Assembly (NCBI GenBank): GCA_038230075.1
Contig: JBBRNV010000005.1
Location: 14,071 to 78,070, forward strand
DNA length: 64,000 nt
From: Minisyncoccia bacterium
GTDB taxonomy: Bacteria; Patescibacteriota; Minisyncoccia; Phycocordibacterales; CALRBL01
Direction of reading: 5' to 3'
Shown here: in pieces, positions 7,777 through 51,916 of the stretch
How the letters are laid out: the number at the start of each line of letters is the position of its first letter
Numbering within the stretch: the stretch's first letter is position 1
Notes under the pieces: model-generated
The model's input: only the letters and a program-made list of their open reading frames with translations
Told to the model about the DNA's origin: nothing
The model's database searches: none
Program-made: the position numbers and the translations under genes

Positions 7777-10700
7777 CTAATTGGTAGGAACTGGAGTCTC
7801 AACAGGAGTAGTTTCCGGAGCTGGTTCTGTTGGCGCAGGTGGAGTTATTACAGGATCAGTTGGAAGTATCGAAGGAGTTGATGTTCCAGAATCTGTTGGA
7901 GTTACAGGATCTGAAGATGTTGCAGTAGATGTTCCTGTGCCTGTATCTCCACTTCCACCGCCACCATTACCTCCAGTTGGAGGAGTTGATGTTCCTGTTG
8001 TTAACCCATGACTTTCACAAGATCCTATTGTTGCAACAATAGCACCATCACTTACGGTCATACAGGTAAGATTTCCTGTTACTTTATCTCGCACGGTAAT
8101 TCCCTCTTCAACTGTTGCGTGTTTTGCAGTGAAGTTCTCAACTATCACATCTCGAAGTGCCCCCATTCCATTAACAACTGATGCCCCGAATGATTGAATA
8201 ATTCCAAAGACAGAGGTTGAGCCAGAACCAAGAGCTAGTGAACTTGTTCCTGACATATTATTTGAGAGCACAAATGAAAGATCGCTCGATGATGCCATGA
8301 ACTGATTCAACTTTTCATTGAGTGCTTGAATACCAACAAGAGCAACTCCGACAGGGTCAACTTGTGAAAGGTGTTTTGGATCATTATTTAAACCAAAGAA
8401 GTCATAAAACTGTTCAGCAATTGGGCCAATGTGTGTAGTACTTGCGTCTTGTGATTTATAATTCCATTTACTAATATCGAGTTCTGAAATTTTCAAGAGA
8501 ATATTTTGCTTATCTACAGGTGTGAAGTTTTCCTTAAGTGATCGTGAAGAACTAAAGTTTCCAAGACCTGTCGAGTCAACATATGCGAGCAATGTTCCAT
8601 CATCTGCTCTCCACTCAGAGAGATTGGCGCTTTGTCCTGTTGAACCGGTGATTGTTTGAGCAACAATATCATCTGAGATTTGAATATTGAGACGACTATC
8701 TGGTGTTGTAGTTCCGATTCCCAAATTTCCCGTCGCGCCGATTAAGCGCATTGATTCAGTATATGTACTTCCATCTCCTGTTGAGACATTTCCGAAACTG
8801 ATATATCCATTATCTGGTGAGAATTGTCTAAGTTCAAAAGGTTGGATTCCAAAACCATATCTACTATTTCCACCATCATCATACAAAAGAAGTTTTTGTG
8901 CATCGGTTCCAGATCCAAGTGAAAGGAGGGCTTGTGGTGTGCCAAAAATACCAAGACCTAAGTAACCATTCTCTGAAAGTATTGCCCCATTCCCAGTACC
9001 AGTTCCAGAATCTCGGCTAAAATAAAGATCTCCCGTTGTGCCGTTATTTCGAATACTCCATTGTCCAGCCTCTGCTCCACCTTGGTTGTTAACAGCAAGA
9101 CCAATATTTGAACCACTATCATTTCCAATAATTGACATGAAGTTCGTACCATTCAAATATGTTGTAATTTGACCTTCGACAAAAAGTCTATCTGAAGGTG
9201 TTGTTGTTCCAATTCCTACATTAACAGCATGTCCTCCTGTTCCTCCAAGAATCAGGGAGTTTGATTGCTGTACTTGAGCAAAATAACCGATTGCTGTTGC
9301 ATTAGACAACGAAGAAGAAGAAAAGATCGCACCATCTTGCTGACCAGCATATGAACCAATAAAGGTGTTTCCAACACTGTCTGTGACTGATCCTCCAGCA
9401 AGAACTCCAATTGAAACGTTTTCATTTCCTAAAATATTTGCTTCACCAGCTCTAAAACCTATCGCGCTGTTGTATGAACCTGAAGTGTTCTCGTGTCCAG
9501 ATCGCGAACCAACAAAGCTGTTTCCAAACCCATCAATATTTTGATTTCCCGCTTCAATACCAAAGAAGTTGTTTTCACTTCCTGTTGTGTTATTTATACC
9601 CGCTGCGAAACTAAAGAAGTTGTTATTTGACCCAGTTATGTTATGTGTTCCAGCTGCCGTTCCAAAAAAGTTGTTTCCCCCTCCTCCTGTGTTGTCATGA
9701 CCCGCCGCATTTCCAAAAAAGTTGTTATCGGTTCCTGTTGCATTATTTGCTCCTGCGGTGAACCCAAAGAAGTTGTTAAAATATCCAGAAGTATTACTTG
9801 TTCCTGCATTAAATCCAAAGAAGTTGTTTGAGTACCCGTCTATATTGCTTGATCCGGCACCTGGCCCGAAAAAGTTGTTTGATGAACCATCAACGTTACT
9901 TATACCAGCAGAGTCACCAAAGAAGTTGTTATTAGATCCGATTGTATTCGATCTTCCGGAATTCAAACCAAGAAAGTTATTGGATGAACCATTCAAGTTA
10001 TTTAATCCAGAGTTGAATCCGAAGAAGTTGTTATGCGATCCGTCGATATTATTCTGACCTGTTCCTGACCCCAAGAAGTTGTTTGACACACCATTGATAT
10101 TAGTAACACCAGCATTAAATCCGAAGAAGTTGTTATCTGTTCCATCCTGTGTATCTCGCCCCGCATTTTCACCTATGAAATTATTTGATCCTCCTGTTGT
10201 AATATTTAGTCCAGCTTGATAACCAACAAGAAAATTACTTGTTCCACTCATTGTTGTATTACCAGAATCTGCAAGTAATATACTACTTCCGACACGATCT
10301 AACGCTCGAAAATTTCGAATATAATAAGGCTGACTAGTGTTAACAATTCCATCGACTTCAAGTTTTTGACCGATGGTTGTTGTGCCGATTGAAACATTTC
10401 CTGCATTAAAATAAATATCACTTCCGCTGTTTACCCACTGTGATGATGAAGTTCCACCAGCAAATAACACGCCGTTTTGGTAGAGGTTTCCAGTGAAGTT
10501 GATGTCGCCTTGAACTGCGAGTGTGTGACTTGGTGTTGTTGTGCCGATTCCAAATTTTCCTCCACCAATAGGCGCTCCACTCTGTGTATCACTATTGTAG
10601 ATACCGGTAGCATATAAAACATTTCCAATGTTCAACTCTTGTTCTGCGTTATTTATAACTCCTCGTCCCAACGAAATTGAATTTGAAAAACCTCCTGTTC

Positions 10701-13700
10701 CTGCCCACTGACCAATCGCAATTGATGTTCCGTCTGATGAGTTATTAACCGTGTCGGCTGATCCTGCGTTTAATCCAATAAATATAGAGTTGTTTGCTTG
10801 CGCTGAAGAATCTCCAGCAGTATCTCCTAGAAAAAGCGAGTAAGAAGCACTTGTGGCATTATGTCCTGCGCCAATTCCAAGAAACGTAGATCGAAATACG
10901 TTCGTTGCACCCTCTCCTGTACCAAAACCAATAAAGTTAGAGAGTCCTGCGTCAGTTGCGCCCATTCCTGCTCCTGCGCCAATAAATATTGAACTACTAG
11001 CACGTGTTGCCAATTCTCCCGCAGCGCCTCCGATGAAAATCGAATTCACAGCGTCAGAAGCATGAAATCCGGAACTAGCTCCAATAAAAATAGCTTGGCT
11101 TGCATTTGTTGCTTCGTTTCCAGAACCATCCCCAAGAAAAAGCGAATAGTTTGCGTTGGCGACGTTTGTTCCAGCAGAGGCTCCGATTGCAAGACTATTT
11201 CCATTGATAGAATGGATTGGAAGCCCACTCAGATTAAGAGTGCTTGTCGCGTCTATCGTTCCAAGTGTCACATCTCCTTTGAAAAAGGCATTACCATTGT
11301 CTACTGTTAATTTGTAACCTGGAGTCGTCGTTCCAACTCCCACATTCCCTAAATTATAATAAATATCAGAACCTGTAGTTGTCCACTGTGATGTTCCTGT
11401 TCCTGAAGTGAAGAGGTTTCCATTTTGATAGAGGTTTCCAGTGAAGTTGATGTCGCCACCAACTGCTAGTGTGTATCCAGGGGTTGAAGTAGCAATACCA
11501 ATTCTTCCACCTGTTTCAGGTGCACCACTTGGGGTAATGTCTGCTCGAATGTTATTGGCAAACAGTACTCCTCCCAAGTTTAGTTCTCGAGATTGATTAT
11601 TGGCAGTTCCTTCTCCAATTGCAATACTGTCACTGAATCCTCCAGTTGATGTCCATGCTCCAATTAATATAGAAGATGACGCGAGATTTGTTGTGTTATC
11701 TACCGTGTCGGAGTATCCAGCATTACTACCAAGAAAGATTGAATTCGCAGCGTTGGTTGCTGCGGTTCCGACATTTGCTCCTACGAAAAACGAATCGTGT
11801 GCGTTTGTCGCATCGAGTCCGGCAGAGTATCCAAAGAAATGAGAATTTCTTGCCTGATTTGCATTTCTTCCTGCCTCCTGTCCAAAAAAGTTTGAGCCGT
11901 ATGCAGTGGTTGCATCACGCCCCGCATTGATTCCGAAGAAATTGGAATCATTTGCGTTGAAAGCTCCTCTTCCTGCGTTTGATCCAAAGAAATTGGAATT
12001 ATTTGCGTCATTTGCGTCACGCCCAGCAGACAAACCAAGAAAGTTTGATTCATTAAGATTTGCATCATTTAATCCTGCAAATGAGCCAATAAGTATATTA
12101 TTACTTCCATCTGTTAATGACGTTCCCCCACCCGCAGCAAGAAAGTTATTAGTACCTGTAATTGAAGTGTTTCCCGATACTCCAAGAAACAAATTTCTAG
12201 TCGTGGATGAAAATGCTAACGCTTGAAGATTTTCTATTTTTAATATTCCACCATTTGAAATATTGATGTCACCAACAACACTAAGTTTTGATGCGGGGGT
12301 TGTTGTTCCAACTCCCACATTCCCTAAATTATAATAAATATCAGAACCTGTAGTTGTCCACTGTGATGTTCCTGTTCCTGAAGTGAAGAGGTTTCCATTT
12401 TGATAGAGGTTTCCAGTGAAGTTGATGTTACCTTGAACTGCGAGTGTGTGACTTGGTGTTGTTGTGCCGATTCCGAGGTTTCCATTTGAAAGCATTTGGA
12501 TATATGCAGTATTTGAAAGACCGAGTTTAAAAATATTATCCTGAACAGTTGTTAAGCCATCACCTATCAGATATGAGTTTGTTGCTGTTGCAGCGTTAGC
12601 TTTTCCTAAAGCAAAGCTTCCGTTCGGAACATTGTTGTTGTATCCAAAGGCATATGTAGTAGAACCTGTTACCATATTCAGGAAACCAAAAGCTCCAGAA
12701 TAAGATCCGTTATTTATGGTGTTACTTCCACCAAAAATCGCAGACTCTGTACTAGTACTTATTCCATTTTCACTACCATATACACTTGCGTGATCAAATG
12801 AGTTTATAACCTTGTTTCCTATTCCAAAAGCAACACCTCGAATACCAGAAACTGTATTTGAAGTTCCGTAGGCAAGATTCTCACCTGGAGTAATAGCATC
12901 AACAGGAAAGATTCCATTTGAAATTGTATTTGAAGCTCCGTAGGCTTGGTTATTTCTTCCTTCAATTGTGTTGAATTTACCAAAAGCAACAACACCCCCT
13001 CCGGCTCCTGACGTTACATTCGATCGACCAATTATTATCGCGACACCTGAGTCTACAATGTTTGATGATCCAAAAATATTTGCACCTGATCCGGATCCTG
13101 AATTATCATTTCCCACAACTGATCCACCACTTGAATTCACAACAGAGATATCTCCTGCAACTGTAAGTGCCAAATTTGGAGTTGTTGTTCCTATTCCAAC
13201 ATTTCCTAAATTGTAATAAATATTTGAACCATTATTTAACCACTGAGATGATGTCGTTACTCCTCCAAATAAAATTCCGTTTTGGTAGAGGTTTCCAGTG
13301 AAGTTAATGTCGCCATCTACTCCTAATTTATAACTAGAAGTTGTTGTTCCAACCCCAAGGTTTCCTGTACTACTCGCAAGAGAAAGATAAGAACCGCTCG
13401 ATAAACCAATTAAGAAGGAGTCATTAACATTGTTAATGAGATTGTTTCCGAGAGTGTAAGAACCTGTACTGTTCACCGAGTTTGCAAGCCCAGCAACAAA
13501 ACTATTTGTTCCTGTTGCTCTGTTATTGCTTCCAAAAACTGAGACTTCGGAACCCGTAATAACGTTTGAGAAACCAAACGCATTTGATTCAAATGTTGTT
13601 CCTGACAAAATATTAAACACGCCGAAAGCTGAAGATGTATTTGATGTTCCAGAAATTCCGTTTTGAATTCCAACTGCAACCGAACGATCATCAGCAACAA

Positions 13701-38643: not shown

Positions 38644-38733
38644 GGAGGAGTGGCAGAGTGGTCTATCGCACTTGTCTTGAAAACAAGAGTCCCTTCACGG
38701 GGACCGTGAGTTCGAATCTCACCTCCTCCGCCA
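38644..38733 (+). tRNA. tRNA-Ser (anticodon UGA), CCA encoded; insertion target of the adjacent element
   Basis: GGAGGAG...anticodon loop CTTGAAA...long variable arm GTCCC-TTCA-CGGGGAC...GTGAGTTCGAATCTCAC-CTCCTCC-GCCA. Confidence 0.85.
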
Positions 38734-40230
38734 AGAATCACATTTAGAAAAATCAAGGTTGGAAGCCTCGGCGCAAAGCGCCTCGGCATGGTATTTTTCC
38801 GCAATTTTGAAGGCATTTTTGAAATCGCACGCCAGCGTGCGGTCGGCAATGCGGAAGTTCGAACCAATCTTTTTGAGAAAATCCCGTCCCGCGACGGGAT
38901 TTTCTTGTTGAGCGTATTTTTCGGCTTGGTTGGCCTCTTTTAGAAAGGCAATGGCAAGTTCGAACCGATTATTGCTCTTTCGCTCAAAAGACTGGATTTT
39001 CTCCTGAAAATCTTTTTTAGCGAGAATGAGCTTGTGCTTTTTAGTGGCATATTCCGTTTGCAATAAATTGCCTTCAAGTTGTAAATCGAGCAAACGATCA
39101 AGTTTTGTCTCAACCTGCACAAGCTCATCTCTCGTCTTTTGAGCAAAAGAGCTTTCCGCTTGGGCAATATCTATTTTTTCTTTTTCAAAATATGCGATTG
39201 AAACATTGACCCAAGCGGAAGACAAAGAAACTTTTTTGATTTCCTCTTTTATTTGAGAAGTGATGGCGTCCTCTCTCGCGTATCTTTGCGAGCAAGGATT
39301 TTTCCGTTTGGTACAGCGGAGATAGTTGTGTCCCTTTTGTGTTTCAGTGGTAATGAAGCAACCACATTCTCCGCAACGGAAAAATCCTCTATACACATAA
39401 GGTTTCAACTTTGGCGATTTCGGTTTGCTCTTATTCGCCATCACTTCTTGAACGGAATCAAAAAGTTTCTTTGTGATAATCGGTTCATGCTTTCCGTCAT
39501 ACAATTCGCCGTTATATTCAATCATTCCAAAATAGATTTTATTTTTCAGCATGTACTGATAATTTGAGACGGAAAGCATTTTACCTTTCTTGCCAACCAA
39601 GCCCAAGGAATTGATAATCTTTCGGATTTGAGCGAGGGGGTATTCGCCAGTAGCGTACATTTCAAAAGCCCGCTTGATATACTTTGCCTTTTCTTTATCA
39701 ACAGCGATACAGCGGGCATTCTTGTCGTTCACATAGCCAAGCGGCGCCCAAGCGGGCCATATTCCATTTCTCAATTTCTGGCGAATACCCCTCTTTATAT
39801 TTTCCGAAAGATTATCCACATAGTATTTTGATTGCCCAAAAGCAATGGACAACATAAATTTCCCTTGCGGTGTGCAGTCAAACCAAAAAGTGGGAAATTT
39901 TAGCGTGGTAATTTTGCCAGTATCTACGAGATAGATAATCCGTCCGCCGTCTATAGAATTGCGAGCAAGGCGGTCGGGGTGCCACGCTAAAATTCCTTCC
40001 GCTTCGTTTTTCTCTATGCCCGCCACCATATCATTAAAAATTTCTCGCCCCGGCTCTTTGGCGGTTTTGCTTTCCACAAATTCACGGACGATCTGCAAAT
40101 TTTCTTTTCGCGCGTATTCTTTTAGCTCGAAAATTTGCGCTTCAATACTCAAAACCTGCCTTTCGGGTTCGTCCGTGGATTTGCGGGCATAGAGGAAAAA
40201 CTTTTTGGTTTGTAAATTTATGTTGTCCAT
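38719..40230 (-). CDS. Large serine recombinase (resolvase catalytic domain + recombinase domain + zinc ribbon + coiled coil)
   Basis: YARKSTDEPERQVLSIEAQ (catalytic Ser motif), recombinase-domain motifs, CGECGC...C zinc ribbon; 503 aa; ~44% GC versus ~37% for the host. Confidence 0.9.
   Translation of the reverse strand: MDNINLQTKKFFLYARKSTDEPERQVLSIEAQIFELKEYARKENLQIVREFVESKTAKEPGREIFNDMVAGIEKNEAEGILAWHPDRLARNSIDGGRIIYLVDTGKITTLKFPTFWFDCTPQGKFMLSIAFGQSKYYVDNLSENIKRGIRQKLRNGIWPAWAPLGYVNDKNARCIAVDKEKAKYIKRAFEMYATGEYPLAQIRKIINSLGLVGKKGKMLSVSNYQYMLKNKIYFGMIEYNGELYDGKHEPIITKKLFDSVQEVMANKSKPKSPKLKPYVYRGFFRCGECGCFITTETQKGHNYLRCTKRKNPCSQRYAREDAITSQIKEEIKKVSLSSAWVNVSIAYFEKEKIDIAQAESSFAQKTRDELVQVETKLDRLLDLQLEGNLLQTEYATKKHKLILAKKDFQEKIQSFERKSNNRFELAIAFLKEANQAEKYAQQENPVAGRDFLKKIGSNFRIADRTLACDFKNAFKIAEKYHAEALCAEASNLDFSKCDSWRRR
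38728..38861. repeat. Inverted repeat X, copy 1 (~134 bp; includes the last 6 nt of tRNA-Ser and the last ~45 codons of the recombinase)
   Basis: ccgccaagaatcacatttagaaaaatcaaggttggaagcctcggcgcaaagcgcctcggc...gcggaagttcg is the reverse complement of 40345-40478, with 1 mismatch. Weaker similarity continues ~60 bp further. Confidence 0.85.
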
Positions 40231-40344
40231 ATTGTTTTGAAATTAGTTTTTGGGCAATCAGGGAAAAATACGCTCAACCTTTCGCCGAAAGCGAAAGAAA
40301 AAAGATTGGTTTGCAAAATTCCATTTTGCCAGAACTTCGCTCTG

Positions 40345-40478
40345 CGAACTTCCGCATTGCCGACCGTACGCTGGCGTGCGATTTCAAAAATGCCTTCAAA
40401 ATTGCGGAAAAATACCATGCCGAGGCGCTTTGCGCCGAGGCTTCCAACCTTGATTTTTCTAAATGTGATTCTTGGCGG
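40345..40478. repeat. Inverted repeat X, copy 2 (immediately upstream of the recombinase start, abutting Y copy 1)
   Basis: Reverse complement of 38728-38861. Carries a duplicate of the recombinase C-terminal coding segment (the + ORF 40311..40535 reads FRIADRTLACDFKNAFKIAEKYHAEALCAEASNLDFSKCDSW). Confidence 0.85.
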
Positions 40479-40643
40479 TGTTTCTTGATTGATGTTCGAA
40501 CATTTTTTGAAGAAAATCCGAATTCCGAATTTTAAAATCCAGTTGCTCGGGCGGGCAAAAAGGAAGGGGGTTGGGGGGAAGGAATTTTTGCCCGCCCTCG
40601 CTTTCCAATCCCAATTTTTTTCCGCCGCCGTCGCCGAATTTCG
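40475..40643. repeat. Inverted repeat Y, copy 1 (~167 bp)
   Basis: gcggtgtttcttgattgatgttcgaacattttttgaag...gggcgggcaaaaaggaagggggttgggggg...ccgaatttcg is the reverse complement of 43967-44132, with 2-3 mismatches. Contains the palindrome gttcgaac. Confidence 0.85.
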
Positions 40644-41098: not shown

Positions 41099-41299
41099 AT
41101 GGCAAATACAGTAAGCGAAAACATCCGCAAATTACGAATCAAAAAAGGAATATCCCAAGATCGCCTCTCAAAAGAGGCTGATTTGGCGTTAAATACAGTT
41201 GTGAAGATAGAAACAGGCGGAAGCCCGAATCCAACCGTGGATACTTTAGAAAAAATAGCCAAAGCCCTCGGCGTTCCGGTGGCTGAATTATTTAAATAA
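41099..41299 (+). CDS. XRE/Cro-C1-type helix-turn-helix transcriptional regulator (66 aa)
   Basis: NIRKLRIKKGISQDRLSKEADLALNTVVKIETGGSPNPTVDTLEKIAKALGVPVAELF is a canonical HTH_3 domain. Confidence 0.85.
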   Translation: MANTVSENIRKLRIKKGISQDRLSKEADLALNTVVKIETGGSPNPTVDTLEKIAKALGVPVAELFK

Positions 41300-41303
41300 A
41301 AAT

Positions 41304-43934
41304 ATGTTAACACAAAAATACGACGAACTTTTTAATCCGCTATTAGAAGCACTCAATAATCTTGGGGGCTCTTCTTCGATTAAGAAAATAGAAGAGGAGG
41401 TTGCAAATATTCTTAATTTAACAGCAGAGGATAGATATGATAAGCATCGTGGAAATAGAACAAAGCTAGAATATAGATTAGCATGGGCTAGTAATTACTT
41501 AAAAAGATATGGCTTAATTGATAAATCAAAAAGAGGAATATGGTCTCTAACTGAAGACGGAAAGAGAACCAACATTGTTGACAAAGACGAAGTTAATCAA
41601 TTTGTTAAAACATTAGATTTAAAAAAATCTAATGTTCGTTTAACAAAAAAAATAGTTGAGAAAATCAATATAGTTGAATTTCTTCAAAAAATTGATTTGG
41701 AGGCTTTTAAATATGAACCTCATTTTTTAACTAACCCCGGAGTAAGAGTTAAGGATATTCTATCCAGCGTTGAAAAGAGATGGGTATTGCCGAATTTCCA
41801 AAGATATTATGATTGGGACAAGGAGGACGTAAGGGCTTTTTTGGAATCCATTTTTAAGGACTATTTTGTAGGATCGCTGCTTTTGTGGGAAGTAGAGAAA
41901 GAACCAGAGATTGCTTATTTTCCGATACAAGGTGTTAAAAACAAAATTGATAAGCCAGAAATAATTATTCTTGATGGCCAACAAAGGATTACTTCGTTGT
42001 ATTATGCGATTAAAAATCCAACTCTAGAAGAGGATGGTGTTAAATCGTTGTTTTATATAAATTTCAAAAATTATTTTGAAAATTTATCTTCCGACATTGT
42101 TATTACAAGTAGTAGAAAATTAAGCATTAGAGAGTCGGTAGAGTCCTTACTTTTCCCATTTTACGAACTGGAAAATCATGTCGAATGGATGCGAGAATTT
42201 GTTGATTTTTATGAAGAGCAGGATGGAATTGACAAAAGAAAGTTAAAAGAGCTTAGCAGAATAATGGAGGACAGGGTTCGTCATATGTGGGGAAGTTTTC
42301 AAATTCCCGAAATTAAACTTCCGGCCTCAATGAAACTTCATCATGTTGTTGATATATTTGAAAACATAAACACAAGAGGGAAACTTCTTGACGCTTTTGA
42401 TCTTTTAATTGCAGCCTCCATAAAACAGAATATTGATTTAAGAAAATTATGGGATGGTTCACGTCAGAAGTACCCAAACCTTGCTAGATATGCCGAAAAA
42501 ACAAAAAACAAGATTAGGATGTATATTTTGCAATCAATTTCGCTACTCCATAATCCAACTAGTTCATGCAAAAAAAGTGACATATTAGAATTATACGAGC
42601 AAATATACTCAAATAAGGGAAAGGACCCAAAAACTTTTGAAAAGCATTGGGAAGAAATGTCTGATTATGTAAATTTGGCCATAAAGGAGATGGAGGATCT
42701 CAAAGGTGGTTTTGGAATAATTGATGAATCACATGTTCCATTCATGTCGATAATTCCGATACTGGCTGCATTAAAAAGAGAGGTTGATTCGAGAGATAAT
42801 AAGCATAGTTGTAATGAAAAAATCAAACAATGGTATTGGTCAGTGGTATTTAGTGAAGCATATTCATCTGCGGTTGATAGCCAGCTAACATTAGACTTTA
42901 AGGAATTAAAGGAGTGGTTCTCCGATGATACAAAAATTCCAAAAAGCGTGGAAGAGGCAAGAATTCTCATTAAAACTTTGAATTTAAAAAAGGTTAATAC
43001 TTTTTCAAGTGCTGTTTTTCGTGGAGTACTCTCTTTACTAGCCATAAAAGGATCTAAAGATTTGCAAACAGGTGAAATGGTTAATAATAGAAATGACTAT
43101 CATAAAGACCATATATTTCCGAAAAGCAAATCAGAAAAATATGTTACTACAAAAAAGGAGCTAGATTCAATATTAAATATGGCTTGGTTGACAAGTCCCA
43201 CTAACGAAAGCAAGGGCGCAAAAGAACCAAAGAAATACTTTGAAGAGTTTGAGAGTAAATACAACGGAAATAAAGGAGCGTACACAGAAGTTCTTGAATC
43301 ACACTTCATCAACAAAGAGGACTACGACTATCTTCTAGATAATAATTTCGAAGAATTTATAGTCGAAAGAGAAAGTGTTTTAGTGGACGAGATTAAAAGA
43401 TTAATTGGTTGGAATAAACATGATCAAGACAGTGATATCCAAAATAACGATATCGACCAATTAATAAATTCTTACGAAAATGAAAAACTTGAGTTTAAGT
43501 CAACATTTAAAAAAAACATACTAACACAAAAATCTGATGAAATTATTAGATTTTCAGTGCTTAAAACAATAGCTGGTTTTTTGAATGCACGAGGAGGAAC
43601 TTTAATAATTGGTTATGACGAAAAAGGCAAGAAGGTAATTGGATTGGAACAAGATTACGAATTAATGAAGAGGGGTGATCGAGATAGTTTTGAGTTAGAG
43701 TTTTGGAATTACATTGAAGCGAATATTGATAAGGATGTAGTGAAAAATAATATAAATTTGAGATTTGAATTAATTGATGAGAAAGAGCTGGCAGTAATTG
43801 AAATCAAAAGAAGTTCAAAGCCAATTTATATTAAAAAAGCTGACAAAAAAATTCTTTATACTCGTAACAGAAATGAGACTGAGAATTTAGAAGATCCTGA
43901 AGAAATTCATAATTATATAGAAAAACATTTCTAA
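41304..43934 (+). CDS. Four-domain nuclease: Mrr_N winged helix + DUF262 (ParB/GmrS-like NTPase) + DUF1524 (GmrD-like His-Me/HNH nuclease) + C-terminal AlbA_2/Schlafen-like domain; GmrSD/BrxU-like type IV restriction candidate
   Basis: N-terminus YRLAWASNYLKRYGLIDKSKRGIWSLTEDG (Mrr_N). NFQRYYDW...IILDGQQRITSLYYAI (DUF262 DGQQR motif). YHKDHIFPKSK...NMAWLTSPTNESKG (DUF1524 DHIxP motif). C-terminus EKLEFKSTFKKN...SVLKTIAGFLNARGGTLIIGYDEKGKKVIGLEQD (AlbA_2). 876 aa; ~32% GC, AGA/ATA-rich codon usage. Confidence 0.8.
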   Translation: MLTQKYDELFNPLLEALNNLGGSSSIKKIEEEVANILNLTAEDRYDKHRGNRTKLEYRLAWASNYLKRYGLIDKSKRGIWSLTEDGKRTNIVDKDEVNQFVKTLDLKKSNVRLTKKIVEKINIVEFLQKIDLEAFKYEPHFLTNPGVRVKDILSSVEKRWVLPNFQRYYDWDKEDVRAFLESIFKDYFVGSLLLWEVEKEPEIAYFPIQGVKNKIDKPEIIILDGQQRITSLYYAIKNPTLEEDGVKSLFYINFKNYFENLSSDIVITSSRKLSIRESVESLLFPFYELENHVEWMREFVDFYEEQDGIDKRKLKELSRIMEDRVRHMWGSFQIPEIKLPASMKLHHVVDIFENINTRGKLLDAFDLLIAASIKQNIDLRKLWDGSRQKYPNLARYAEKTKNKIRMYILQSISLLHNPTSSCKKSDILELYEQIYSNKGKDPKTFEKHWEEMSDYVNLAIKEMEDLKGGFGIIDESHVPFMSIIPILAALKREVDSRDNKHSCNEKIKQWYWSVVFSEAYSSAVDSQLTLDFKELKEWFSDDTKIPKSVEEARILIKTLNLKKVNTFSSAVFRGVLSLLAIKGSKDLQTGEMVNNRNDYHKDHIFPKSKSEKYVTTKKELDSILNMAWLTSPTNESKGAKEPKKYFEEFESKYNGNKGAYTEVLESHFINKEDYDYLLDNNFEEFIVERESVLVDEIKRLIGWNKHDQDSDIQNNDIDQLINSYENEKLEFKSTFKKNILTQKSDEIIRFSVLKTIAGFLNARGGTLIIGYDEKGKKVIGLEQDYELMKRGDRDSFELEFWNYIEANIDKDVVKNNINLRFELIDEKELAVIEIKRSSKPIYIKKADKKILYTRNRNETENLEDPEEIHNYIEKHF

Positions 43935-43966: not shown

Positions 43967-44132
43967 CGAAATTCGGCGGCGGCGGAAAAAAATTGGAATC
44001 GGAAAGCGAGGGCGGGCAAAAATTCCTTCCCCCCAACCCCCTTCCTTTTTGCCCGCCCGAGCAACTGGATTTTAAAATTCGGAATTCGGATTTTCTTCAA
44101 AAAATGTTCGAACATCAATCAAGAAACACCGC
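43967..44132. repeat. Inverted repeat Y, copy 2 (right boundary of island)
   Basis: Reverse complement of 40475-40643. Ends in ...gaaacaccgc, directly followed by unique flank acataacaat. Confidence 0.85.
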
Positions 44133-49885: not shown

Positions 49886-49915
49886 TCGATTCCTAACGAG
49901 GGGAAAGCAAAAATA

Positions 49916-49955
49916 AAAAGCATCTAGTGGGAATGAATTCACTAGATGCTTTTTA
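49916..49955. terminator. Bidirectional intrinsic terminator (aagcatctagtg-loop-cactagatgctt + T-run)
   Basis: 12-bp perfect stem flanked by A-run and T-run, between the tRNA (+) and rpsT (-). Confidence 0.65.
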
Positions 49956-49963
49956 TTTTGTTT

Positions 49964-50936: not shown

Positions 50937-51860
50937 ATGCCAGAACTACCAGAAGTTCAAACCACCGTTGATGGAATTAAGAAAGTTGTTGTTGGAAGTG
51001 TAATTACTGATGTTTGGACCGACTATAACAGCCCTTATTACAAAGGATCAGAACAAATCAAAGATCCAACGTATTTTACATTTTTTAGAAAAGAACTTCT
51101 TGGAAAACAAATCATCGGTTCATCTCGTCGCGCAAAAAATGTATTAATTCATGTCGAAGGAGGTCTCACTATTCTTATTCATATGAAAATGACTGGCCAC
51201 ATAATGCACGGAACATTTGCCTTTGATGCCAAAAAGAAAAAAGATAAATGGTCACCTCTTGATGAAGGCCCCTTACAAGATCCTTTTAACAAATTTCTTC
51301 ATCTTGTTTTCTCTTTATCTTCAGGCAAAAGCTTAGTTCTCTCTGATATGCGAAAGTTTGCCAAAGTAACTTTGGTTAAAACCGCAGACATGAATTCAAC
51401 GATTCATTTTAAAGATCTGGGGCCAGAGCCACTCTCAAAAGAATTTACTCTAAAGGTTTTTATGGAAACAATTAATAAGAAACCAAAAGGAAAAATAAAG
51501 ACAGTTCTGATGGACCAATCTCTTATCGCAGGAATTGGAAATATTTATTCAGATGAAGTGTTGTGGAGAGCGGGAGTTCATCCTGAAGAATTGGTTTCAA
51601 ATATCCCCCACCCTCTCTTTAAAAAAATGTTTGATGCGATAAAAACAACACTCAATAAAGGAATCGATTTCGGCGGAGACTCAATGTCAGATTATCGAAA
51701 CATTTATGGTGAACCTGGAAAGTTTCAAGAACAACACCAAGCATACCGACAAACTAAAAAATCATGTAAGAAACCTAAGTGCAAGGGAATCATTCTTCGA
51801 AAGATGGTTGGAGGAAGAAGCGCTCACTTCTGCAGCGCTCATCAGTTGTTACAAAAATAA
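50937..51860 (+). CDS. mutM: Formamidopyrimidine-DNA glycosylase / Nei family
   Basis: N-terminal MPELPEVQ (catalytic Pro2/Glu3), H2TH domain, C-terminal zinc finger CKKPKCKG...HFCSAHQ. Confidence 0.85.
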   Translation: MPELPEVQTTVDGIKKVVVGSVITDVWTDYNSPYYKGSEQIKDPTYFTFFRKELLGKQIIGSSRRAKNVLIHVEGGLTILIHMKMTGHIMHGTFAFDAKKKKDKWSPLDEGPLQDPFNKFLHLVFSLSSGKSLVLSDMRKFAKVTLVKTADMNSTIHFKDLGPEPLSKEFTLKVFMETINKKPKGKIKTVLMDQSLIAGIGNIYSDEVLWRAGVHPEELVSNIPHPLFKKMFDAIKTTLNKGIDFGGDSMSDYRNIYGEPGKFQEQHQAYRQTKKSCKKPKCKGIILRKMVGGRSAHFCSAHQLLQK

Positions 51861-51916
51861 AAAACACCGAGTTGGAGTAACCCCACTCGATGCTTTTTAT
51901 TTTTATAGTCTATTTA

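Follow-up and report, generated by a model that had tools for sequence, protein, structure and literature searches.

Large serine recombinases (LSRs) are valued tools in genome engineering; as integrases they act in one direction and require a recombination directionality factor (RDF) to be reversed. TnpX of Tn4451, TndX of Tn5397, and CcrAB of SCCmec are LSRs that excise and insert their elements via a circular intermediate without a separate directionality factor. To our knowledge, these elements lack both long inverted repeats and an internal inverted joint site, their own recombinase genes are not split, and their targets are not tRNA 3' ends. Inversion systems such as the Mu Gin/G segment, P1 Cin, Salmonella Hin, and the R64 shufflon join a constant 5' part of a gene to alternative 3' ends; Gin, Cin, and Hin are small serine invertases acting with an enhancer and Fis, and the R64 shufflon uses the tyrosine recombinase Rci. 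We know of no such system in which the recombinase, rather than a tail fibre or pilin, is encoded by the switched gene, or in which the inverted sites are the attachment (att) sites of an integrating element. The yeast 2-micron plasmid consists of two unique segments and a long inverted repeat with an FRT site in each copy, and one segment encodes the tyrosine recombinase FLP; the plasmid replicates, and flipping serves copy-number amplification. In mycobacteriophages BPs and Brujita, attP lies within an open reading frame (ORF), so that free and integrated genomes express different C-termini and the act of integration does the switching; what is split there is the repressor gene, with a degradation tag as the C-terminus, integration is carried out by a tyrosine recombinase, and there is no spare inverted copy (PMC3694055). 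Here we describe an integrative element of ~5.4 kb at a tRNA-Ser gene of a Minisyncoccia bacterium, in which attP lies within the ORF of the element's own LSR. The element was found in a 64,000-nucleotide stretch of contig JBBRNV010000005.1, referred to below as the window.

Inverted repeats were identified by self-comparison of window positions 34-46 kb, and their uniqueness was judged over all 64 kb. Apart from two pairs, X/X' and Y/Y', the window contains no inverted repeat of 45 nt or more (Table 1). The 134-nt copies of X differ at a single position, a synonymous CGC/CGT exchange in an arginine codon, and the 159-nt copies of Y differ at three positions (98% identity). A preliminary description of this locus had stated that X duplicates the 3' coding end of the recombinase gene, that the last ~45 codons lie inside X with X' encoding the same peptide in the opposite orientation, and that this arrangement reflects design rather than chance. 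These statements were borne out: the plus-strand ORF at 40311-40535, which runs across X', repeats the same 45 residues, and the layout recurs in relatives, as described below. Three relationships were absent from that description, namely that X' abuts Y, that X begins within the 3' end of the tRNA-Ser gene predicted by ARAGORN, and that CCGC also stands at the outer end of Y'. Because X' and Y abut with an overlap of 4 nt (GCGG, that is, CCGC in the inverted sense relative to the outer two cores), X'Y forms a single 289-bp unit. Read on the opposite strand, X'Y corresponds to Y' followed by X; therefore, X and Y' are the halves of a second copy of this unit, with the whole element between them.

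The segment 38728-44132 is thus an integrative element, and its own LSR placed it at the 3' end of tRNA-Ser(UGA). The junction between the tRNA and X is attL, the junction between Y' and the chromosome is attR, and X'Y is an intact inverted copy of attP within the element. Integration split one attP copy, situated inside the recombinase ORF, into attL and attR. Consistent with an integrative element, the insertion lies at a tRNA 3' end, the integrase gene is adjacent, the cargo is foreign, and the element supplies the ...CCA end of the tRNA. The invertible cassettes that had been taken as the primary nature of the locus are accordingly replaced by an attL arm (X), an attR arm (Y'), and a complete inverted attP (X'Y). 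The inner X'Y copy is placed between the recombinase gene and a defence cargo led by a helix-turn-helix (HTH) gene, and it duplicates not only the last 45 codons but also the native 18-aa tail and the sequence downstream of it. An insertion sequence or transposon with terminal inverted repeats was rejected, as attL and attR are direct, the inverted partner is internal, and there is no duplication beyond the shared core. Tandem or nested insertion was likewise rejected as the source of X'Y because the inner core is inverted, whereas the junctions of true tandem arrays are direct.

Table 1. Features of the integrative element and its target (positions in the window; nt, nucleotides; aa, amino acids).
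Feature	Position	Strand	Basis or remark
tRNA-Ser(UGA), integration target	38644..38733	+	ARAGORN, alignment; last bases CCGCCA supplied by or shared with the element
LSR, 503 aa, tail-truncated integrated form ending W-R-R-R-stop	38719..40230	-	Pfam, family alignment, AF2 model of a homologue
attL core CCGC, left element boundary	38728..38731	+	Only bases common to attL, inner site, and attR
Repeat X, attL arm; last 45 recombinase codons	38728..38861		134 nt, 99% identical to X'
U region, conserved, 114 bp between recombinase start codon and X'	40231..40344		Alignable across loci with recombinases 73-91% identical to that of the window
Repeat X', spare inverted copy of the recombinase 3' end	40345..40478		Same position and ~134 nt in most covering related loci
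Inner-site core GCGG	40475..40478	+	Exact 4-nt overlap of the X' and Y arms
Repeat Y, P-type half-site with GTTCGAAC at 40494-40501, 16 nt from core	40475..40633		Alignment
Coding part of Y: native tail codons CFLIDVRTFFEENPNSEF, then stop (40533-40535) and downstream sequence	40479..40532		Tail conserved as protein
104-aa ORF, first in cargo segment	40780..41094	+	No Pfam match; not found in other elements
Small HTH_3 (XRE-type) protein	41099..41299	+	Pfam; promoter-proximal end of cargo operon
Cargo protein, 876 aa, Mrr_N + GmrSD_N + SLFN/AlbA_2	41304..43934	+	Pfam; type IV restriction-like defence gene
Repeat Y', attR arm, right element boundary; core 44129-44132, GTTCGAAC at 44106-44113	43974..44132		

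The attachment sites were compared with those of related loci. At least 8000 candidate homologues of the recombinase were found; in the genome collection, 534 loci were confirmed and 80 were fetched, mostly from metagenome-assembled genomes of the candidate phyla radiation (CPR)/Patescibacteria and Elusimicrobia. In what follows, T denotes the tRNA arm of a site, x and y/y' the element arms, D the chromosomal arm, and U the region upstream of the recombinase gene; a slash marks the junction of two arms. Around the core, attL reads ...GAGTTCGAATCTCACCTCCT-CCGC-CAAGAATCAC..., the inner site (reverse complement) reads ...ATGTTCGAACATCAATCAAGAAACA-CCGC-CAAGAATCAC..., and attR reads ...ATGTTCGAACATCAATCAAGAAACA-CCGC-ACATAACAAT..., with CCGC as the only shared block. 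The outer two cores are direct and the inner one is inverted. Junctions of this kind are the mark of recombination between attP and attB with a very short common core. In one relative (L034), attR reads CCG/A, which narrows the crossover to CC or CG; the exchange point lies within CCG(C), where the arms meet.

In every locus inspected, the tRNA arm carries GGTTCGAATCC at 11 nt from the core and the y' arm carries GTTCGAAC at 16 nt from the core; in the window, the T-loop GTTCGAA of the tRNA gene occupies 38710-38716. The shift of GTTCGAA from 11 to 16 nt was invariant among these loci. In the LI integrase sites, the distal zinc-ribbon-domain (ZD) motif lies 5 bp nearer the centre in attB than in attP (Rutherford et al., PMC3783163), and the 11/16-nt shift equals this 5-bp rule for LSRs. 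The 8-bp palindrome gttcgaac had earlier been reported near one end of both X and Y and proposed as the crossover core. It is complete in Y and Y', but in X it straddles the inner boundary of the repeat (38857-38864, with the repeat ending at 38861), and X' reads gttcgc instead. Standing 16 nt from the core, 5 bp further out than the T-loop motif of the tRNA, gttcgaac in Y is a mimic of the T-loop in the attP register and not the place of crossover. No GTTCGAA-like motif was present in the x and D arms of related loci at any offset, and the D arm showed no conservation across loci. By sequence, the sites therefore depart from the canonical pseudo-palindromic type in which both half-sites are recognised, and they agree with attP/attB sites in their short core and their distal motif shifted by 5 bp. 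Junctions of the wrong polarity (T/y, y'/y, and x'/x) occurred in none of the loci fetched, indicating that the core is effectively asymmetric. A palindromic crossover, or independent cassettes, would be expected to produce such junctions, and both were rejected on this ground.

The recombinase is a bona fide LSR in its domains, catalytic serine, zinc-ribbon cysteines, coiled coil, and fold. Pfam identified Resolvase (PF00239, E = 2e-19), Recombinase (PF07508), and Zn_ribbon_recom (PF13408). An alignment of 43 homologues showed Y14, R16, S18, and D86-R87 of the nucleophilic serine catalytic domain to be invariant, as were the zinc-ribbon cysteines C286, C289, C306, and C313. In the PDB, a search by sequence reached no further than the catalytic domain; therefore, a fold search was used. 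The AlphaFold (AF2) model of P0020, a homologue with the native tail, contains the LSR domain set with a coiled coil at 338-441 (helices 338-385 and 391-441), a beta-hairpin at 456-470 where the X arm starts, a helix at 474-489, and a confidently modelled tail helix at 498-513. Its best Foldseek matches were the SPbeta, LI, PhiC31, and Bxb1 integrases (E = 1e-15 to 1e-10). A small serine invertase of the Hin/Gin/Cin/Pin type was rejected, given a protein of 503-519 aa with LSR C-terminal domains and att-type sites; the "Pin-like" label on some database entries of homologues reflects the catalytic domain alone.

Two different C-termini are encoded by the two copies of the recombinase 3' end. 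The recombinase ORF of the window ends in ...FRIADRTLACDFKNAFKIAEKYHAEALCAEASNLDFSKCDSW-RRR, of which the final two arginine codons and the stop codon are tRNA antisense, and the plus-strand ORF across X' continues after the same 45 residues to ...DSWRCFLIDVRTFFEENPNSEF. The C-termini of homologues likewise fall into two classes directly after a conserved ...W-R. One is a conserved tail, CFL(D/I/N)(E/D)VRTFFE(Q/E)NP..., and the other, R(G/E/D)RDSNPR..., is the translated antisense strand of the tRNA T-arm. Among 37 distinct y arms, variation at third codon positions was about double that at the first two, and GTT CGA was invariant at all three, indicating that the tail is a selected peptide overlapping a DNA motif. 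The CFLIDVRTFFEENP... tail, formerly described as an alternative one, is the native, protein-conserved, and ancestral form, and the RRR end in the window is derived, made by integration into the tRNA gene.

Among 120 homologues, at least 64 had tRNA-antisense tails and at least 19 had native tails. Even within single clusters at 90% identity, recombinases identical up to W-R carried the native tail or several different tRNA tails, showing recent mobility and the presence of both configurations in one lineage. In sequence, the locus thus behaves as an integration-dependent switch, with attP in the ORF and either native or tRNA-antisense tails on otherwise identical proteins. The window is in a state, here called state A, in which the recombinase reads into the tRNA antisense strand and lacks the conserved tail helix.

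The layout of the window element was found in nearly all of the 80 genome loci where the extent of the contig permitted (self-BLAST); over the ~100 related CPR/Elusimicrobia loci in total, nearly every informative one shares it. One arm of a ~134-nt inverted repeat covers the recombinase 3' end, and its other arm is found 115-250 nt ahead of the start codon. Directly adjoining this repeat is one arm of a second inverted repeat (150-420 nt), whose partner follows at a distance of 1.3-7 kb, beyond a unidirectional cargo operon. The recombinases of the fetched loci are 59-95% identical to that of the window, and the layout persists at an identity of only 59-65%. The targets in relatives are tRNA-Ser genes with anticodons gct, cga, gga, and tga, and in one sub-lineage a tRNA-Gln gene; the recombinase 3' end enters the antisense strand of the tRNA in all loci inspected, and the same lineage occurs at different tRNA genes. 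Identity between X arms was much higher within an element (median 99.2%, with 17 of 39 pairs identical) than between elements (69%), which is concerted evolution of the arms. Tandem arrays of the form ...y2'/x1-rec1-x1'/y1... were present in L020 (1-8733), L082 (1-8255), and L014 (9370-9624). In these arrays, a second element had integrated into the attL (T/x) of a resident, whose recombinase thereby gained a foreign "native-like" tail, indicating that T/x is usable as a target. No description of this architecture was found in the full-text literature searched.

Some related loci showed other arrangements. In L029 (7600-9656), a recombinase segment lies between two 100%-identical tRNA-Ser(gga) genes that are inverted relative to each other, with unrelated 5' flanks and differing x-arm types; this locus may be read as recombination of an internal attP with a second tRNA-Ser gene, that is, a chromosomal inversion, or as a chimeric contig. 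In L081 (7700-10242), a recombinase with a different N-terminus lies 137 nt downstream of a co-oriented tRNA-Ser(gct) gene, without a recognisable X arm or U region upstream, yet with a normal y arm and the native tail. Many related contigs stop 40-60 nt outside the upstream X arm, or measure 1.8-2.3 kb and hold the recombinase alone.

Both orientations of the recombinase, and both tails, are present in nature. JGI metagenomes were scanned for the pattern tRNA T-arm - 11 nt - CCGCCA - ~240 nt - recombinase start, in which the tRNA lies upstream of the recombinase in the same orientation. The scan gave 39 matches, of which 18 belonged to this recombinase family. The recombinase gene started where predicted, after tRNA(+)/x-U, in 17 of the 18 contigs; the remaining one (L104) held a fragment of the X arm only. 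L092, a contig of 543 kb, reads tRNA-Ser/x-U-rec-x'/y, with the protein ending ...NWRCFLIDVRTFFEQNPQ, and L135 shows the flipped state at a tRNA-Gln gene. The X arms in both loci are only ~86% identical, which excludes a mis-join by the assembler and makes the flipped state unambiguous. In both, the recombinase and the cargo are convergent (state D). The preliminary description had predicted that a flip of the X-X' interval would leave the recombinase ORF intact while swapping its extreme C-terminus, and had asked whether strains differ in orientation. L092 and L135 are in exactly this flipped state, and near-identical recombinases carry either tail.

The cargo segment gave a different picture. 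Loci with identical recombinase DNA differed between samples in the direction of the cargo that follows (L083 against L084, L129 against L133); these switches span 100%-identical arms and may therefore be assembly ambiguities. Among 22 complete loci resembling state A, the cargo was divergent from the recombinase in 17 and co-directional with it in 5. None of the resolved loci held homologous cargo in opposite orientations, and homologous cargos kept one orientation. Cargo (Y-Y') flipping is therefore rare or uncatalysed, and the support for it is weak. A pattern scan of IMG/VR for a circular form gave no match, and L082, which was considered as a wrapped circle, is a tandem array whose arms are 93-94% rather than 100% identical. 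Look-ups of the exact protein for an empty site or an alternative orientation in the source population yielded only Logan unitigs ending ~30 nt inside the arms. The attB considered here is a reconstruction. In Logan data of SRR19962015, the left flank, the cargo, and the right flank of the window were present as separate unitig-type contigs (L126, L127, and L128). The right-flank contig breaks off ~30 nt into the Y' arm, and the left-flank one within the tRNA-Ser gene. The population from which the window derives is probably present in this sample.

The best overall explanation, to which we assign a probability of roughly 60%, is an integrated LSR element with a spare inverted attP that works as an RDF-free reversible switch. 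Under this explanation, the type of a site would be set by its left arm alone: T, with GTTCGAA at 11 nt, would be attB-like, and y', with GTTCGAAC at 16 nt, would be attP-like, and the right arm would be x or arbitrary chromosomal DNA. If left arms alone define the type, any exchange between a T-type and a y-type site would regenerate one site of each type. Integration (T/D with y'/x), excision (T/x with y'/D), and inversion of the recombinase segment (T/x with inverted x'/y) would then be a single reversible reaction, with no dedicated directionality factor. We infer this site typing and the single reaction from the arms, and likewise the inversion of the window element and its regulatory purpose. 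Flipping of the X-X' interval would re-join the ORF to Y and restore the full-length recombinase, and integration via the other attP copy would give the same outcome. The homology of X, at 134 nt, far exceeds a half-site, and it would also permit RecA-type flipping and gene conversion that keeps the arms identical. More speculatively, the element may switch the recombinase between two states that differ in C-terminus and in direction with respect to tRNA transcription; loss of the tail helix would quiet the recombinase in state A, state A would accumulate in genomes, and flipping would re-arm the element. A far-reaching version of this proposal is less likely than not: an integrase that switches itself, using one-armed sites in the 11/16-nt register, a spare inverted attP with the gene's 3' end, and no RDF, would toggle between a full-length active and a tail-less quiescent form, locking itself site-specifically and unlocking by a flip across the 134-bp arms.

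Several points weigh against the reversible switch. Canonical LSRs need an RDF for excision. Neither inversion, excision, nor an empty site was observed for the window element, and the unitigs of the only sample with identical flanks break at the arms. Integration via the second attP, instead of inversion in situ, could account for the flipped relatives, and many ORFs with native tails lie on contigs of ~2 kb whose ends fall in the repeat, a place where mis-joins by the assembler can occur. The irrelevance of the right arms is suggested by their sequences only, and x is moderately conserved and could be a specific half-site. A difference in activity between the truncated and the full-length protein is speculative. 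Nearly all resolved loci in the genome set are in state A; therefore, flipping may be rare. In addition, an attL-type and an attP-type site are no substrate pair for canonical LSRs (PMC3783163).

This last property also favours the main rival, in which a free circle contains two equivalent inverted attP copies, either of which is used for integration; depending on the copy, the product would be the state of the window, with the recombinase 3' end next to the tRNA, or the native-tail state. The element would be static afterwards, with the inner copy as an unused attP. States A and D, the latter represented by L092 and L135, are the exact pair predicted from one circle isomer, and the single orientation of homologous cargos fits as well. 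What such a scheme leaves unexplained is why 134 nt of coding sequence, rather than ~25 bp, should be duplicated at ~99% identity, and how the co-directional isomers (states B and C) arise; moreover, no circular form was recovered, with no match among viral contigs and L082 resolved as a tandem array. We consider this rival rather unlikely. An improbable reading is that the inner X'Y serves as a cis-regulatory or insulating module (an operator for the recombinase or the HTH protein, a transcription stop beside the cargo, or a template for a small C-terminal peptide) and not as a recombination substrate, its identity being kept by passive gene conversion. The position of X'Y between the divergent recombinase and HTH genes and beside the conserved U region would suit such a role, as would the bracketing of the cargo operon by Y arms on both sides and a 13-bp inverted repeat read after the stop codon of the tail. 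However, the separate ORF has no conserved start codon or Shine-Dalgarno sequence, for which reason a separate small protein from the spare copy was rejected. A terminator in Y was rejected too, as the terminator scan made no call on the 13-bp repeat and the Y hairpin folds no better than shuffled sequence (z = 0.61). Furthermore, an operator needs no perfect inverted identity over 290-550 bp including the exact core, and the flipped and tandem states show that these sites recombine.

It is very improbable that X/X' and Y/Y' delimit two independent invertible cassettes, serving phase variation of the recombinase and of the cargo, with gttcgaac as the crossover core. Both segments are indeed flanked by inverted repeats, and identical recombinases occur with cargo in either orientation (the two pairs of loci named above), although these opposite orientations, across 100%-identical arms, may be assembler ambiguity and the cargo orientation is biased 17:5. 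The arms join at CCGC and not at gttcgaac, which in X lies half inside the repeat, is absent from X', and in Y is the T-loop mimic 16 nt from the core. X and Y' moreover adjoin the tRNA and the chromosome, respectively, forming attL and attR, and the cargo promoter region and the HTH gene both lie inside Y-Y', so a flip would not switch expression. An assembly artefact, such as a fold-back or a chimeric contig, is hardly credible: amplification or misassembly of metagenomes can create inverted duplications, and many related contigs break at the arms, but the arms contain mismatches (1 in 134 and 3 in 159), and the same architecture is present with diverged sequences in dozens of independent assemblies from different studies and phyla.

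With the phage-type LSRs (Listeria A118/LI, PhiC31, Bxb1, and SPbeta SprA), the window recombinase shares the catalytic and recombinase domains, the zinc ribbon with an inserted coiled coil, and the fold, and its sites share the short core, the exchange at a few common bases, and a distal motif 5 bp nearer the centre in the bacterial site. It differs from them in that attP lies inside the integrase ORF, so that integration alters the protein, that a recognisable motif is present on only one arm per site, and that an intact inverted attP with a copy of the gene's 3' end is retained inside the element. A small HTH gene is its sole conserved RDF candidate, and it targets tRNA-Ser or tRNA-Gln genes at their 3' ends, with an attP arm that mimics the T-loop. 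The predicted circular form of the window element would resemble the 2-micron plasmid, with four isomeric arrangements possible; unlike that plasmid, the element has no replication gene and integrates into a tRNA gene. The integration-dependent immunity of BPs and Brujita may be regarded as the closest conceptual analogue of a protein change by attP within an ORF, the difference being that here the split gene is that of the recombinase itself.

An attP in the integrase ORF, single-arm sites that copy the T-loop, and an internal inverted attP suggest a different solution to directionality and self-regulation, and the family could yield compact RDF-free invertible switches. If the integrase does switch itself, this would represent a new logic for the control of LSR directionality in a widespread vehicle of defence genes in CPR bacteria. 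This very abundant family ranks among the main carriers of restriction-modification genes and further defence genes in CPR/Patescibacteria and Elusimicrobia, where few mobile elements are understood. Its architecture also explains frequent assembly breaks: the inverted repeats of the element are a systematic cause of such breaks beside tRNA-Ser genes in CPR genomes.

As shown in Table 1, the U region lies directly upstream of the recombinase gene and is presumably its promoter or control region. The cargo has a GC content of 0.29-0.34, compared with ~0.38-0.42 in the flanks. Of 22 complete elements, 20 encode a homologue of the HTH_3 protein (37-97% identity), and in each of them its gene stands at the 5' end of the cargo operon beside a Y arm. 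Besides the recombinase gene, this is the only conserved gene of the element family; the protein is a candidate regulator or directionality factor. Apart from it, no conserved accessory gene that could be a candidate RDF was found among the 22 complete elements. The cargo of relatives consists mostly of restriction-modification and other defence genes. Elements with NgoPII restriction-modification cargo gave no signal of modular cargo exchange, as their recombinases and cargos are equally diverged.

Two other regions of the window contain repeats. Positions 9100-13400 hold dense repeats with a period of 51 nt, together with 189-nt repeats ~0.9-1 kb apart, apparently in at least one very repetitive coding region. 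Similar 52-nt hairpins (81% identical) at 49908-49959 and 51852-51903 flank an rpsT-ruvA-fpg-like block right after a tRNA-Arg(gcg) gene; there is no integrase between them, and they are therefore probably related terminators.

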